From a bacterium (GTDB lineage Bacteria > Patescibacteriota > UBA1384 > CAILIB01), in assembly GCA_037131105.1 (NCBI GenBank), contig JBAXRQ010000001.1, positions 130,039-194,038 on the forward strand: 64,000 nt of DNA, read 5' to 3'. Positions within the stretch are counted from its first letter, which is position 1. Every line of letters starts with the position of its first letter. Below, in pieces: positions 5,884-15,648 of this stretch. A program made the position numbers and the translations under genes. Below the pieces are notes generated by a model. The model was given only the letters and a program-made list of their open reading frames with translations. It was not told the origin of the DNA and searched no databases.

Positions 5884-6168
5884 TTAGGCGGATGGCTTGT
5901 CAACTATTTTTGGGGCAGCTCCAACCAGGATAGTGACTATGTCATTTTTAATGCGAAGAATACCGCTTTCTATAGCCATGTTCTCTTCTTTTTCAGAGTG
6001 GACCTGTAATTCACCTTTACCTAGTTCAGCGAACATAGGAGTGTGGCCAGGTAGTAGTCCGAGCATGGTTTCTTTGCCTGGCGCCAGGATATAGTCAGCC
6101 GTTCCTTCGAAGAGGATCTCGTCCGGGTTGATGATTTTTACGGTCAACTTTGGTTTTTCGTCAGCCAT
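5884..6168 (-). CDS. atpC: F-type ATP synthase epsilon subunit (short form without the C-terminal helical hairpin).
   Basis: A 94-aa beta-sandwich-type epsilon (…ILAPGKETMLGLLPGHTPMFAEL…). It lies immediately downstream of atpD. Confidence 0.85.
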   Translation of the reverse strand: MADEKPKLTVKIINPDEILFEGTADYILAPGKETMLGLLPGHTPMFAELGKGELQVHSEKEENMAIESGILRIKNDIVTILVGAAPKIVDKPSA

Positions 6169-6275
6169 GTCGTTGCATTTTGATTAAGCGCACTGGTTCG
6201 GCTGTCCAGTCGACTTCGAGTTGAGCATTCATTGGCTGTCTTATTGAAGCGAGACGAGGGAGAATGGAAGTCGAA

Positions 6276-7682
6276 CTAGTGAGCTTTCGCCTTCCATCGT
6301 TCCTCCGCCATCTCAATCTTCCCAATCAGTCCGAACATGTCGTCGGTAAGTTCGTCTAAGACGCCCGAGAGTATCTTCTCTACGCCAAGGACTGTGTCTT
6401 CAAGCTTAACGTATTGTCCGGGGATGTTGGTGAACTTTTCAGCCGTAAAGAAGGGCTGGGAGAGGAACTTGAGCAGCTTTTTAGCTCGGCCCACCGTGAT
6501 CTTCTCGGCCTCAGAAAGCTCATCGACACCAAGAATGGCGATGATGTTTTGCAGCGATCGGTAGCGCTCAAGCACCTTCAGAGTCTCCTGTAGTACCATG
6601 TAGTGTTTTTCCCCCAACGTGGTCCGGTCTACCGATGAGGAGCAGGCCAGGATATCCATAGCCGGGAAGATCTTCTGCTGGGCGATCTTACGGGAAAGCA
6701 CTACTGTGGAGTCCAGGTGGGAGAAGATGGCCTGTACGGCGGGGTCTGAGAAGTCATCGGCAGGCACATAAATGGCCTGGACCGAGGTGATAGAGGCCGT
6801 CTTATTTGAGACGATGCGCTCCTGCACCTCCCCCATCTCTGAGGCCAAGGTTGACTGGTAACCGGTTTCAGAAGGGATGCGTCCCAGCACGGTAGATACT
6901 TCCATTCCTGCTTGAATGAAGCGGAAAATGTTGTCGATGAAGAGTAGCACGTCGTTGCCGGTGGTGTCGCGGAAGTATTCGGAGATAGTGACGCCGGTAA
7001 GCGGGGTCCGGAAGCGCATGGCGGGGGACTCGTTCATTTGCCCTAGTACGATAGCCACCTTTGGCAGCACGTCACTGTCCCTTAGGGTCAGGTAGAGCTC
7101 GTTTCCCTCACGGGTGCGCTCACCGACGCCGCACATCACCGACTGGGTGCCGTGCTCCACCGTAGTATTGTGGATGATCTCGGTCACCAGCTGGGTCTTG
7201 CCAACACCGGCACCTCCGAAGAAGCCGATCTTTCCTCCTTTTAGGAAGGGCGTAACGAAGTCCAGGGCCTTGATGCCGGTCTCGATAATGTCATGGGTGG
7301 TCTGCAGCTCGGTGTAGACGGGACTGGGACGGTGGATGGGCCGGCGCTCCTTGGTCTCGATGGGGCCGTTCTCATCTACCGGCTGGCCGAAGACGTTCAC
7401 TACTCGTCCCAACAACTCTTTACCGACGCCGATGTTTAGAACGTCGCCGCTGTTCTCTACCAGGAGACCGATGGAAAGGCCCTGGCTGGGGCCCATGGCC
7501 AGGCAGCGGACGGTGCTACCCTCAAGGTGCTCAAAAACTTCCAGGATGAGGCGCTCCTCGTTCTGGACGTAGAGGGCGTTGTAGATCTCGGGCAGTTCGC
7601 GGGGGAAATGCACGTCCACTACAGCGCCATGGACGTTGGTGATCTTACCGCGCTGGAGGGTGGTAGGGTCGGGGGTGGGCAT
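6276..7682 (-). CDS. atpD: F-type ATP synthase beta subunit.
   Basis: Walker A motif GGAGVGKT. It aligns with F1 beta over its full 468 aa. Confidence 0.95.
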
Positions 7683-7747
7683 ATGCCACTAGTATATCAT
7701 TCGAGTCCCCTATCATACATGGTCCGATTTTCCACTAGCTCTTCTTG

Positions 7748-12506: not shown

Positions 12507-13027
12507 TCGGAGCGGAACTGGGTGAAGCGAGTGCGCAGGCTGTAGTCGGTGATGTAGTTTCCGTAGCGGACGATGACACCGCCGATAAGAGTAGGGTCGA
12601 CGGTCACTTCAAGGGCCACAGGACGGCCCAGCTGGGTGGAGAGGGTGGAGACCATTTGGTGTAGGTCCTTATCCTTGAACTCTATGGCCACAGTGATCTT
12701 AATAACTCTGATGGCCTCGGCCCGTCGCTGCATGGCGTGGAGAAAGTCTGGAAAATGCTTGCTGTCGAAGAACTCCAGGTCACCGGAATCAAGGATTTCC
12801 AGCAGCTTCATACGTAGTTCCTCTGACTGCACCTGCTCCATTACCTTTTTGACGTACCCTACCTTTTCCCTGAGCGTCTTAGGGGTCTGCTCCAGCATCA
12901 GTTCCATCTCACCCTGGTTGACAGTCTCAAGCAGGGAAACTAGGGACAGGTGAAGCTTGTCTATCTGGTCTGCCAAATAGAACTTCTGCAATACTTGGTT
13001 GGCGGCCAGACTGTAATCGAGGCTCAT
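12482..13027 (-). CDS. atpH: F-type ATP synthase delta (OSCP) subunit.
   Basis: 181 aa, helical, and sits between atpF and atpA. The C-terminal …LIGGVIVRYGNYITDYSLRTRF resembles OSCP. Confidence 0.75.
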   Translation of the reverse strand: MSLDYSLAANQVLQKFYLADQIDKLHLSLVSLLETVNQGEMELMLEQTPKTLREKVGYVKKVMEQVQSEELRMKLLEILDSGDLEFFDSKHFPDFLHAMQRRAEAIRVIKITVAIEFKDKDLHQMVSTLSTQLGRPVALEVTVDPTLIGGVIVRYGNYITDYSLRTRFTQFRSDWKQMSKQ

Positions 13028-13566
13028 GCCGGGTTCTTAGTGTCGTCACTTTCAGCCTTCAATTCCTTGAGCGCTTCCATAACCAGGGTCTTTTGTCCGG
13101 CGTAGCCGATGCCGCTCGGTAATACCTTCTTAGCTACCGAAAGAACTAGGTTCATAAGGTCGTCTTCTACTTCGCGCTGGCGGGACTTCATATATTCCTC
13201 TGCCTTGGCCTTGGCTTCCTCCTCAAACTTCTTGGACTTGGTCTTGGCGGCGGCAAGTGCCTTCTTGCTCTGCTCGGTAAGTGCAGCGATCTTGTCCTCG
13301 TATTCCTTCCTGATGTCGGCGATCTCTTTGTCGGAGTCGGTATCGGCTGCCTTGACCTGTTTCTCGACCTCTTTCAGTTTGGCCTCACTCTCCTCGGTGA
13401 GCTTTTTAAGAGTCTCCTCGTGGGCAGTTTTAAGAGCGGCTACCTCGGCAGCAGCCTTCTTTTCTGCCTTGTGCCTTCGGGACGTAAACAAGAGCTCAAC
13501 CAGGGAGATGAGAAAGACCGAGAGAGTGATGCTGGCGCCGATGGCGAAGAGGAACAGCTCGCGCAT
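13024..13566 (-). CDS. atpF: F-type ATP synthase b subunit.
   Basis: An N-terminal TM helix is followed by a long charged Ala/Lys/Glu coiled coil. It overlaps atpH by 4 nt. Confidence 0.7.
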   Translation of the reverse strand: MRELFLFAIGASITLSVFLISLVELLFTSRRHKAEKKAAAEVAALKTAHEETLKKLTEESEAKLKEVEKQVKAADTDSDKEIADIRKEYEDKIAALTEQSKKALAAAKTKSKKFEEEAKAKAEEYMKSRQREVEDDLMNLVLSVAKKVLPSGIGYAGQKTLVMEALKELKAESDDTKNPA

Positions 13567-13578
13567 AGAAGTGGTGGG

Positions 13579-15648
13579 TTAGCTTAGGATCATCAAGGCG
13601 GCAAACAGGGCGAGAAGCGCCACGGCCGCGCTGATAATCAGACCTATATACATATTCAATTGTACCTTGCCTTTGGCCATCGGATTACGGCCTATGGCCT
13701 CCAGGCCTCGTCCGGACATAATGCCGATGCCGATTGCAGACCCTAGGAGCCCGAATCCAGCTGCGATTCCCGCGGCCATATTTTTTAGGAATTGCTGGGT
13801 GCCTCCGCTGGCGCTGGCTCCGGCTTTGCCGCTGAGTACGCTTTGCAGGGCCTCGCCGATGCTTCGTACCAGATTCTTGCCGTCACTCTTGACTTTGAAG
13901 GTATTGCTGATGCCGCTGATGCTGCCGCCCACGGCAGTGATGGCAGTACCGTCGCTCTGGTAGAGGATCTTAGTCTGACCCTTCCAGATACCTGAGGTGA
14001 ACGGAGTAGCGATGCTGGGGGTGACCGATCCGGTGGAGTCACTGAGCGTGGCTGATCCGGTAAAGTTAGTGAGGATGTTACCTGAATAATCCTTGGCCGT
14101 AACTGTGACAACAAAGGCGGTGCCGGCGGCCTGGTCGGCGATCTTGTCAAAGACCAGTACCCCACCATCCTGGGGATGGATGGCTACGGTAGCGTCAGTG
14201 GTTTTATCTATGGTGGCGCCGGTATCGAGCTGTACCTGACTGGCCTTTACGGTCACTGTGCCATTGCCGGGCTTGAGGCTGGCGGTGAGGTCGGTGGTGC
14301 TGGCAGTCTGGTAGCTAAGCTGGCCGATATCGCCCGTAGTAGTCCAGTTATAGGTGATGTCGGTGATGGAGTTGTTGTACTTGTCGAAGGCCTGGGCGGT
14401 GATGATCTGCTTACTTCCGGCGGGTATGCTGACAAACTTCGGGGTAATATAGACCCGGTCAAGCTTGCCGGCGTCAGGGCGCGGGTCAGGCGGCTGAGTG
14501 CCGTTGCCTGAGCCAGTACTGTCGCTGGGGGTAGGGGTGGGGGTAACGTCGTTTGAGCCCCCAGGCGACGAACTGGTGCCGTTGCCGAACTGGCCGTTGC
14601 CGGGATCGCCACCCTCGGTGACGCCGCTGGTCTCGTTGACGACGGTGATGCTTGCTAGGGCGCCAATGCCTCCGACTTCCGCTCGAACCGTATTCGCGTA
14701 GGTCCCTGATACGTCACCGGCGGTGAAGACCCCGTTCTGGTCAATGGTGCCACCGCCGGCAGCGACGCTCCAACTGGGAGAGGGGAGGTTTACCGGATTT
14801 TTGAATGAGTCATATCCGTTTACTATGTACTGCTGGGCAGCGCCCTTGGGGATGATGCTGGTAAGCGGCGTGATCTCCAGTCCGGCTAAGGCGCCAGGAA
14901 GGGCGTTTGCATAGATGGTGAGCTGGGCGCCGCTGATGCCTGAGACCTGGGCGGTGACCGAGTAGGTGCCGATCTTATTTCCTAGTACCACTGAATTGAG
15001 GATGAGTCCGTCCGATCCAGAGCTTACCGTGGCACTACCTGCCGCCTGGCCGCTGGCTCCTGCCGGGTAGCCTGCTACCTGGAAATTGACGTTGACATTG
15101 GGGACAGGGTTGCCGTACTGGTCGATGACCTTGGCCACGATGCTGCGGGACAGGGATGACCCCACTACGCCGGTCTGTCCGTTGCCGCTTACCAGGCCTA
15201 GGGTGGTGAAGTTGGTATTCGGTCCTACCGTAAACGTGTCTGATCTGACGTTGCGGATACCGTAAGAGGCCGTAATAGCGTCGTTTACCATTGATTTGGT
15301 AATGGTGACTAGGGCCGTCCACTGTCCATTACTAAAGGCACTGGTATGGGTAGGGGTAATACTCCCACTACTGTCGGATAGGTAAACCGAATCATTGAAG
15401 GTGGTGACCAAATTCCCATTACTATCCAGGGCACTGACCGTGATATTGAAGGGGACGCCGGCTACCTTGTCATCACCCTGGGTGAAGCCTGAGTCGATGG
15501 CTAAGTGGTCAAGGCTGCCAGTAGCATGGACGTGCTGGAGGGTTCCGATCAGGGCGCCGCTCAAGGACATGAAAAGAAGGGCTATAAAAGCATAGCCAAG
15601 AACTACCTTCCTCAGGAGAAGACGTAAAAACTTCGAGGAGGGCGACAT
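13579..15648 (-). CDS. Fusion ORF: signal peptide, about 600 aa of Ig-like extracellular repeats with a Thr/Pro/Ser/Gly linker, and a C-terminal F-type ATP synthase c-subunit-like hairpin.
   Basis: The last roughly 66 aa are [66 protein letters not shown]. This contains the c-subunit Gly-zipper and the R-N/Q-P loop. It sits exactly where atpE belongs, directly upstream of atpF. There is no stop between the Ig-like region and this hairpin: the in-frame upstream codons read …[11 protein letters not shown]. No Asp or Glu is present in the second helix. Confidence 0.6.

Follow-up and report, generated by a model that had tools for sequence, protein, structure and literature searches.

An F-type ATPase variant of candidate phyla radiation bacteria lacks subunit a, carries an immunoglobulin-like array fused to subunit c and lies beside Pam-like pilus genes

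An ATP synthase-like locus occupies positions 5884 to 15648 of a 64-kb stretch of DNA (64,000 nucleotides of contig JBAXRQ010000001.1, hereafter the window) from a bacterium of the Patescibacteriota. The locus is an undescribed, conserved F-type ATPase variant that is specific to the candidate phyla radiation (CPR) and tied to the Pam pilus; our search of the literature returned no description of an immunoglobulin (Ig)-fused or a-less F-type ATPase in CPR bacteria. Its c-like hairpin is not encoded by a separate small gene and instead forms the C-terminus of a 689-aa secreted protein carrying an array of Ig-like domains, which we call Ig-c. The Ig-c ATPase probably burns ATP to power a structure on the cell surface. 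More specifically, and with a probability of about 60%, we read it as an a-less, ion-uncoupled F-type ATPase that acts as an ATP-hydrolysing rotary motor for the neighbouring Pam-type pilus or a related surface complex. Read along the minus strand, the gene order is MacB-type ABC transporter, Ig-c, b-like subunit, delta, alpha, gamma, a histidine phosphatase and two membrane proteins, beta, and epsilon. The original prediction, made from the DNA letters of this stretch, had called the locus noncanonical on two counts, and both were borne out, as were the coordinates and minus-strand orientation of all the open reading frames (ORFs) that it listed: no a subunit precedes the c-like gene, a Pfam-recognized MacB_PCD/FtsX permease being found there instead, and the histidine phosphatase (Pfam) and two membrane proteins (3 and 7 predicted transmembrane [TM] helices) lie between atpG and atpD on the same strand.

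The gene encoding Ig-c (13579-15648, minus strand) matches Pfam PF00137 (ATP-synt_C) at residues 624-687 with 38 bits against a cut-off of 24, within an F-type c-subunit hairpin that spans residues ~616-688; NCBIfam subunit-C models and Big_1 gave only sub-threshold matches. The protein starts with a signal peptide that ends in an AxA-type site (..HVHA|TG), followed by an ectodomain of ~570 residues made of five Ig-like beta-sandwich domains and interrupted by a disordered linker rich in S, T, G and P at residues 340-387. An AlphaFold2 (AF2) model shows the same layout, with a helix at residues 4-36, five beta domains, and then two helices at residues 616-654 and 656-688. The N-terminus of an F-type c subunit faces the outer side of the membrane. 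Because the Ig array is fused to that end behind a signal peptide, it is expected to stand outside the cell. A Foldseek search with the full Ig-c model returned generic Ig-array matches only (S-layer proteins, complement, cadherin) and nothing specific to a function. One ectodomain module of ~100 aa shares 45 to 50% identity with a domain of "ice-binding" surface proteins (PF11999) found in Gemmatimonadota and Archangium, among others, which suggests that the module is a shared, mobile domain of surface proteins. Giant versions of Ig-c, 1386 to 2589 aa long, were found in four related loci (L021, L029 from CPR3, L030, and L102) and end in the same carboxylate-less hairpin (...FIKFF). In L030, the giant Ig-c is followed by divergent alpha, gamma, beta, and epsilon genes, and b and delta were undetectable.

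The hairpin has kept its cytoplasmic loop and glycine packing motif but has lost the residue on which ion transport depends. Helix 2 of the window Ig-c contains no Asp or Glu, as the original prediction had stated, and the same acid is missing from all 10 homologues read out in full. Across the whole comparison, a helix-2 Asp/Glu was absent from 36 of 36 fusion hairpins (35 from related loci plus that of the window) and present in 47 of 47 canonical CPR c subunits, which carry the carboxylate within the motif AFAEAIAIYALV (AFAEA). Meanwhile, G631, G636, G642, G648, L649, A651, I652, G653, R654, N655, and P656 are invariant in the fusion alignment, and neither the cytoplasmic loop GLEAIGRNP nor the glycines of helix 1 vary within the fusion or the canonical group. 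This invariance suggests that the Ig-c hairpin still packs into a ring and still contacts gamma and epsilon.

The second missing element is subunit a. No match to Escherichia coli AtpB was found in the 64-kb window by phmmer, and a hidden Markov model (HMM) built from 43 CPR a subunits returned zero matches in the window with filters off at E ≤ 10. The same model found nothing at E < 1 in any Ig-c locus and recovered a from canonical loci at E values of 1e-85 to 1e-128. No canonical atp operon lies within the 64-kb window, and two canonical operons found in JGI samples of the same series (L146 and L149) were assigned to other organisms on the basis of GC content (0.38 versus 0.55 in the window). 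By the established mechanism of rotary ATPases, ions cannot be translocated by a c-ring that bears no carboxylates and has no subunit a beside it, and we know of no rotary ATPase that does so without a membrane carboxylate on c. For this reason, the enzyme would be expected neither to make ATP nor to pump ions and to act in hydrolysis only. The opposite proposal is that the machine is still an ion-translocating synthase or pump that borrows its a subunit from elsewhere, such as a canonical operon, and uses an unconventional ion site. All of its F1 and stalk subunits are intact, a canonical a is present in some genomes that carry an Ig-c operon, and our search for a in this genome covered only the 64-kb window of a 949-kb contig, all of which would be compatible with such borrowing. 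However, the carboxylate is absent from every fusion, the canonical a in L050 and L078 is accompanied by a c of its own that bears the carboxylate and by a complete second set of F1 genes, and a truncated epsilon together with an extracellular fusion argues against a bioenergetic role. We therefore regard retained ion transport as very unlikely.

The remaining subunits form a complete catalytic head and stalk set. Beta (6276-7682, minus strand) retains GGAGVGKT, GERTREGN, and DELSEAE, with the P-loop and catalytic Glu intact, and scores 527 bits against the F1 beta of a thermoalkaliphilic Bacillus (2qe7_D) versus 359 bits against the beta of G1-ATPase. Alpha (10422-12476, or to 12506, minus strand; gene call of 684 aa; Pfam ATP-synt_ab and ATP-synt_ab_C) keeps the GDRKSGKT P-loop, the SVSR arginine-finger motif, and DDLSK, and ends in a low-complexity tail of ~190 aa rich in P, A, E, and K (10422-11000). 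Together, alpha and beta would supply an alpha3beta3 head in which Walker A, the catalytic Glu, and the arginine finger are all preserved. Gamma (9489-10418, minus strand; Pfam ATP-synt, 147 bits) bears a K/E-rich insertion and would form the central stalk with epsilon (5884-6168, minus strand), a 94-aa protein that matches only Pfam ATP-synt_DE_N and consists of the N-terminal beta-sandwich alone. The peripheral stalk is represented by delta (OSCP; 12482-13027, minus strand; Pfam OSCP, 57.6 bits) and by a b-like subunit (13024-13566, minus strand) in which a single TM helix at the N-terminus precedes a long charged helix, whose match to the NCBIfam subunit B model PRK14473 is sub-threshold (E 1e-7) and which lies between Ig-c and delta in all relatives. 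Measured against a full F1Fo enzyme, the operon lacks a helix-2 Asp/Glu on c, an a subunit (PF00119, with its essential Arg), and the C-terminal domain of epsilon. Short epsilon and long alpha are typical of the family: the median length of epsilon is 92 aa in Ig-c-type versus 139 aa in canonical operons, and that of alpha is 552 aa versus 509 aa in canonical CPR operons. Loss of the inhibitory C-terminal helices from epsilon is in keeping with an enzyme that only hydrolyses ATP.

All related loci were annotated with phmmer and HMMs. When a single genome of each GTDB species was scanned, ~32 loci with a full-length Ig-c fusion were recovered, and a metagenome scan added ~20 more; 26 further full-length homologues, 38 to 54% identical, could be aligned. 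The hosts of the ~32 species loci are CPR2, CPR3, Berkelbacteria, a metagenome-assembled genome (MAG) of the Microgenomates group, and MAGs labelled Saccharibacteria, with some mislabelled as Pseudomonadales. Across the loci, Ig-c is followed in turn by b-like, delta, alpha, gamma, beta, and epsilon, and a is always missing. Absence of a is a defining feature of the family, and the three-gene insertion between gamma and beta is private to this genome. The synteny comparison envisaged in the original prediction came out divided in this way, with the a-less order shared by relatives and the insertion found only in assemblies of the same organism. Its description of the Fo sector as degenerate or heavily remodelled fared similarly: remodelled it is, while degeneration is contradicted by the recurrence of the a-less, carboxylate-less layout with intact ORFs in more than 30 CPR species.

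Both phylogeny and gene content set this family apart from the housekeeping enzyme. A neighbour-joining tree places the Ig-c-operon betas, that of the window included, in a monophyletic group of their own, apart from canonical CPR betas, which cluster with Chloroflexota; Ig-c-type betas are 69 to 78% identical across lineages and ~50% identical to canonical ones. In two loci, L050 (149-15335) and L078 (3-15312), an Ig-c-type alpha-gamma-beta-epsilon set is followed after 4.5 kb by an entire canonical operon, a-c-(b-delta)-alpha-gamma-beta-epsilon, whose c bears the carboxylate and whose epsilon is full length, so that one beta of each type, 48 to 50% identical, lies on one contig. The MAG that includes L050 also includes L026, which terminates in Ig-c, b, and delta. 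Likewise, MAG CAYNIX01 has an Ig-c operon on L033 and canonical a and c on L085. The two operon types therefore coexist in at least three MAGs, all relatives of the window organism. A second, complete atp operon, which the original prediction had named as an outcome that would refute it, thus occurs in related genomes. We take this coexistence as decisive evidence that the Ig-c operon is, as far as gene content and sequence comparison tell, an old paralogue of the housekeeping enzyme, a second ATPase and not a decayed copy. Intact ORFs in more than 30 CPR species, together with the invariant c loop and helix-1 glycines, indicate purifying selection on a working machine.

Two other explanations bear on the same observations. 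The first is that the locus is a decaying remnant of a housekeeping ATP synthase in a reduced symbiont genome. CPR genomes are indeed reduced, many are without a complete ATP synthase (PMC10656485), and ATP synthase is dispensable in one Saccharibacterium (PMC10633639). However, all eight genes are intact here, the coupling residues are invariant, the architecture and the high identity of beta have been kept over deep CPR divergence, and the operon coexists with a canonical one, making decay highly improbable. The second is that assembly or gene calling has artificially merged two genes, one for an Ig surface protein and a small one for c, for which one could cite the ORF being split in L031, L037, and L038. 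Given that the split cases contain runs of N or frameshifts and that independent assemblies (ENA, Logan, JGI, and NCBI) repeatedly show the ORF uninterrupted, we give this explanation almost no credence.

The link to a surface structure comes from the genes that follow epsilon. Five genes directly 3′ of it (323-5794, minus strand) recur beside the Ig-c operon in most relatives. Two of these encode Pam-pilin-like secreted proteins: that at 3381-4472 matches NF058581 (CPR_Pam_pilin_C) at E 1.1e-4 over model positions 3-146 of 148, below the cut-off, and that at 4544-5794 is its paralogue by alignment with it and with homologues, in which a Cys pair is conserved throughout. Within this pilin-like family, NF058581 matches 11 of 18 members, with a best E value of 1.3e-7; searches of the PDB with single sequences and a profile gave no sequence match for the pilin-like proteins. 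The product of 1584-2588, a candidate PamC/PamD-type chaperone, begins with a signal peptide, has two beta-sandwich domains (Pfam fn3_5 at 32 bits and WxLIP_PGBD at 30 bits, both above cut-off), and ends in a TM anchor (predicted TM helices: residues 33-51 and 301-319). Next to it, a secreted Big_13/Big_6 protein with a C-terminal dockerin (323-1582; Pfam) is found together with the chaperone-like gene in 14 other loci. The fifth gene (2636-3445) encodes a protein with an N-terminal anchor or signal that matches no family and has homologues in L003, L006, L008, L023, and L034. When we counted Pam-like pilin or chaperone genes within 10 kb, they were present at 16 of 23 long Ig-c loci versus none of 21 long canonical loci (Fisher p 6e-7).

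Pam pili were recently solved from the Saccharimonadia parasite "Ca. Mycosynbacter amalyticus" (structures 25PZ and 25QA, given in the supplement; Troman et al. 2026, bioRxiv 10.64898/2026.03.03.709456). In that work, PamA and PamB are donor-strand-exchange pilins, and PamC and PamD are PapD-like chaperones with a C-terminal TM helix; in architecture, the product of 1584-2588 matches the latter as described there. The authors noted "ATP synthase" genes beside pam operons, read them as a link to ATP production, and reported neither trans-envelope assembly machinery nor retraction machinery for the pili. Directly 3′ of epsilon, our window carries candidate counterparts of their system, namely genes for distant PamA/B-like pilins, matched below the family cut-off, and one for a chaperone-like protein with two domains and a membrane anchor. 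In contrast to our reading, the preprint treats the neighbours as ATP-producing metabolism, and the missing a, the Ig-c fusion, the lost carboxylate, and the paralogy are not described in it. Since co-localization is confined to one operon type in our data (16 of 23 versus 0 of 21), gene neighbourhood indicates that the pilus-associated "ATP synthase" is the Ig-c type and not the housekeeping enzyme. Proteomics of M. amalyticus showed an abundant alpha (QHN42722) and atpD (QHN42726), with the pam operon (QHN43268-43274) lying ~545 accession numbers away (bioRxiv 10.64898/2026.03.03.709456). Judging from this numbering only, M. amalyticus probably has two ATPase sets. QHN42722 and QHN42726 are four accession numbers apart, so that genes besides gamma appear to intervene between them.

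If our preferred reading is correct, ATP hydrolysis would turn gamma-epsilon and the Ig-c ring relative to a head held by b and delta, and torque or conformational work would cross the membrane to an external crown of Ig domains. The work delivered could serve assembly, anchoring, rotation, or retraction of a Pam-type donor-strand-exchange pilus or a related surface complex. A narrower version, which we put forward only tentatively and consider somewhat doubtful, would seat the Ig-c ATPase at the Pam pilus base as its missing engine, where a collar of Ig domains on a hairpin ring turned by F1 would assemble, spin, or retract the filament. Several points weigh against a pilus motor. Every NF058581 match to a pilin-like protein is below the curated cut-off of 55 bits, and 7 of the 23 long Ig-c loci have no Pam-like gene within 10 kb. 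For the atp genes beside pam in M. amalyticus being of the Ig-c type, accession numbering gives the only hint. We infer rotation, ring formation by the fusion protein, and contact with Pam proteins. Without a, the stator would be held in the membrane by the single TM helix of b, so that its resistance to torque is questionable, and a ring of 8 to 15 subunits, each with ~570 external residues, may be sterically demanding.

Some of these points would also be explained if the enzyme were an ATP-driven F-type motor with another job, such as remodelling of the wall or surface layer, host adhesion, or partnership with the MacB-type exporter, the pilus genes being mere neighbours in an island of surface proteins. 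Consistent with this, Pam genes are lacking from the seven loci just mentioned and from the giant-fusion loci L029, L030, and L102, and the ectodomain resembles the Ig arrays of S-layer proteins and adhesins. Furthermore, a MacB-type ABC transporter adjoins Ig-c in the window (permease at 15739-17187 and partner ABC ATPase at 17184-17888, both minus strand and assigned by Pfam) and lies next to or near it in all four giant-fusion loci, L021, L029, L030, and L102. This association is recurrent and not universal; the transporter may either cooperate with the ATPase or belong to an island of surface proteins, and its membership in the system is uncertain. Set against such an alternative job, Pam-like genes are the most consistent neighbours of Ig-c operons and are never found beside canonical ones, and an independent neighbourhood analysis based on PamA gave the same co-localization (bioRxiv 10.64898/2026.03.03.709456). 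We accordingly judge a motor unrelated to the pilus to be rather unlikely and favour the rotary motor for the Pam-type pilus or a related surface complex.

Comparison with known F-type systems helps to define what is new in the Ig-c ATPase. With the canonical F1Fo enzyme (atpBEFHAGDC), it shares homologous alpha, beta, gamma, delta, epsilon, b, and c hairpin, the gene order from c to epsilon, the catalytic motifs, and the RNP of the c loop; it differs in the loss of a and of the c carboxylate, the Ig array of ~570 residues, the epsilon without C-terminal helices, the alpha tail, and the separate beta clade. N-ATPases (PMC2881411) are also second F-type operons that coexist with a housekeeping one and are laterally distributed. 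However, they keep a, an ion-binding (Na+/H+) c, and AtpQ/AtpR in the order atpDCQRBEFAG, whereas the Ig-c operon has no a and retains the canonical order from c to epsilon; the model TIGR03322 (alt_F1F0_F0_C) gave Ig-c only 18 bits against a cut-off of 130.85.

The closest functional parallel is found in mycoplasmas, in which the Type 2 F1-like X0 ATPase is the G1-ATPase of the Mycoplasma mobile gliding motor and the Type 3 enzyme is required for the extracellular MIB-MIP antibody-cleavage system (PMC3369863, PMC12994834). In mycoplasmas as in the Ig-c family, a second F1-derived ATPase beside the housekeeping one is tied genetically to an extracellular function in a wall-less or reduced, host-dependent bacterium; among relatives of the window organism, such a second F1-like set stands beside a housekeeping F1Fo in L050, L078, and L033/L085. 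In its layout, a membrane subunit of Type 3 even matches Ig-c: it begins with a signal peptide, continues as a large ectodomain, and closes with two TM helices at the C-terminus. In contrast, the mycoplasma clusters, from a different phylum, have no delta or b, encode a 12-TM subunit and a small cytoplasmic protein, and contain no recognizable c hairpin, whereas the Ig-c operon has delta, b, and a hairpin that Pfam recognizes and has no conserved 12-TM partner. An F-type ATPase that keeps c, b, and delta without an ion path is a plausible intermediate towards the F1-like X0 machines, whose membrane parts are unrecognizable. Were the Ig-c ATPase indeed the engine at the pilus base, it would be such an intermediate still living, and no other F-type rotary ATPase would have been shown before it to drive an appendage outside the cell. 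It is a concrete candidate energy source for Pam pili, for which no assembly platform or retraction machinery was reported, and offers a natural experiment on the role of a c-ring once freed from ion translocation. There is a practical consequence as well. Several Ig-c homologues are automatically annotated as "F-type H+-transporting ATPase subunit c", and with pipelines labelling Ig-c genes as H+-transporting ATPase, CPR surveys that count ATP synthases, and metabolic models based on them, may credit some lineages with a proton-coupled enzyme that they may lack, or count one organism twice.

The genes between gamma and beta have no part in this picture. The histidine phosphatase and the two membrane proteins are a private insertion with no role in the ATPase machine: together they occur only in the window and in three further assemblies of this organism, L001, L002, and L089, and in relatives gamma is followed directly by beta or by other, unrelated small inserts. 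The phosphatase (8809-9354, minus strand; branch 1, CobC/PGM-like; Pfam His_Phos_1 at E 6e-43, NCBIfam ribazole_cobC below cut-off) is missing from every related operon. The 3-TM protein encoded at 7748-8194 (minus strand) belongs to no Pfam or NCBIfam family and returned no homologues beyond this organism. The 7-TM protein encoded at 8215-8784 (minus strand, 189 aa) belongs to an unannotated family without a Pfam entry that is widespread in CPR (more than 200 clusters, 49 to 69% identical); its homologues in other genomes lie neither near atp genes nor beside a CobC-like histidine phosphatase.

The original prediction had allowed that this 7-TM protein might be a divergent a subunit or an AtpI-type assembly factor, which the comparisons did not uphold. 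As a divergent a subunit it was rejected, given an hhalign probability of 0.2% against the a-subunit profile and a PQ-loop/SWEET/KDEL receptor-like fold (AF2 model pLDDT 90; top Foldseek matches cystinosin, SWEET13, and the KDEL receptor). For AtpI there was no support from the Pfam scan, which gave no family at E ≤ 0.1, including ATP-synt_I and ATP-synt_A, no AtpI profile-profile or fold comparison having been run. One homologue bears the JGI automatic label "assembly protein I", which nothing else backs.

The gamma-beta junction itself (7683-9488 in the window) is a repeated site of lineage-specific inserts or an operon breakpoint in the Ig-c family: it holds a 67-aa ORF in L006 and L008 (L006, 15702-15905) and a 147-aa ORF in L023 (15900-16343), and the operon is split in L016 and L019. 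In the window, the intergenic gaps around the inserted genes are 20 to 134 bp, on one strand, with no convincing terminator, which makes it plausible that they are co-transcribed with the atp genes. A promoter and terminator scan of the region gave no signal beyond shuffled expectation. The sole strong terminator-like hairpin of the region (4519-4498, minus strand; 9-bp stem, 7 GC pairs, T tail) separates the two pilin-like genes, as would be expected if the first pilin were a highly expressed major subunit. Further along the window, at 19724-22434, a GH81 endo-beta-1,3-glucanase (701 aa) adjoins an HlyD-like membrane-fusion protein, an unusual cargo for a CPR genome; the glucanase may be relevant to attack on the host cell wall.

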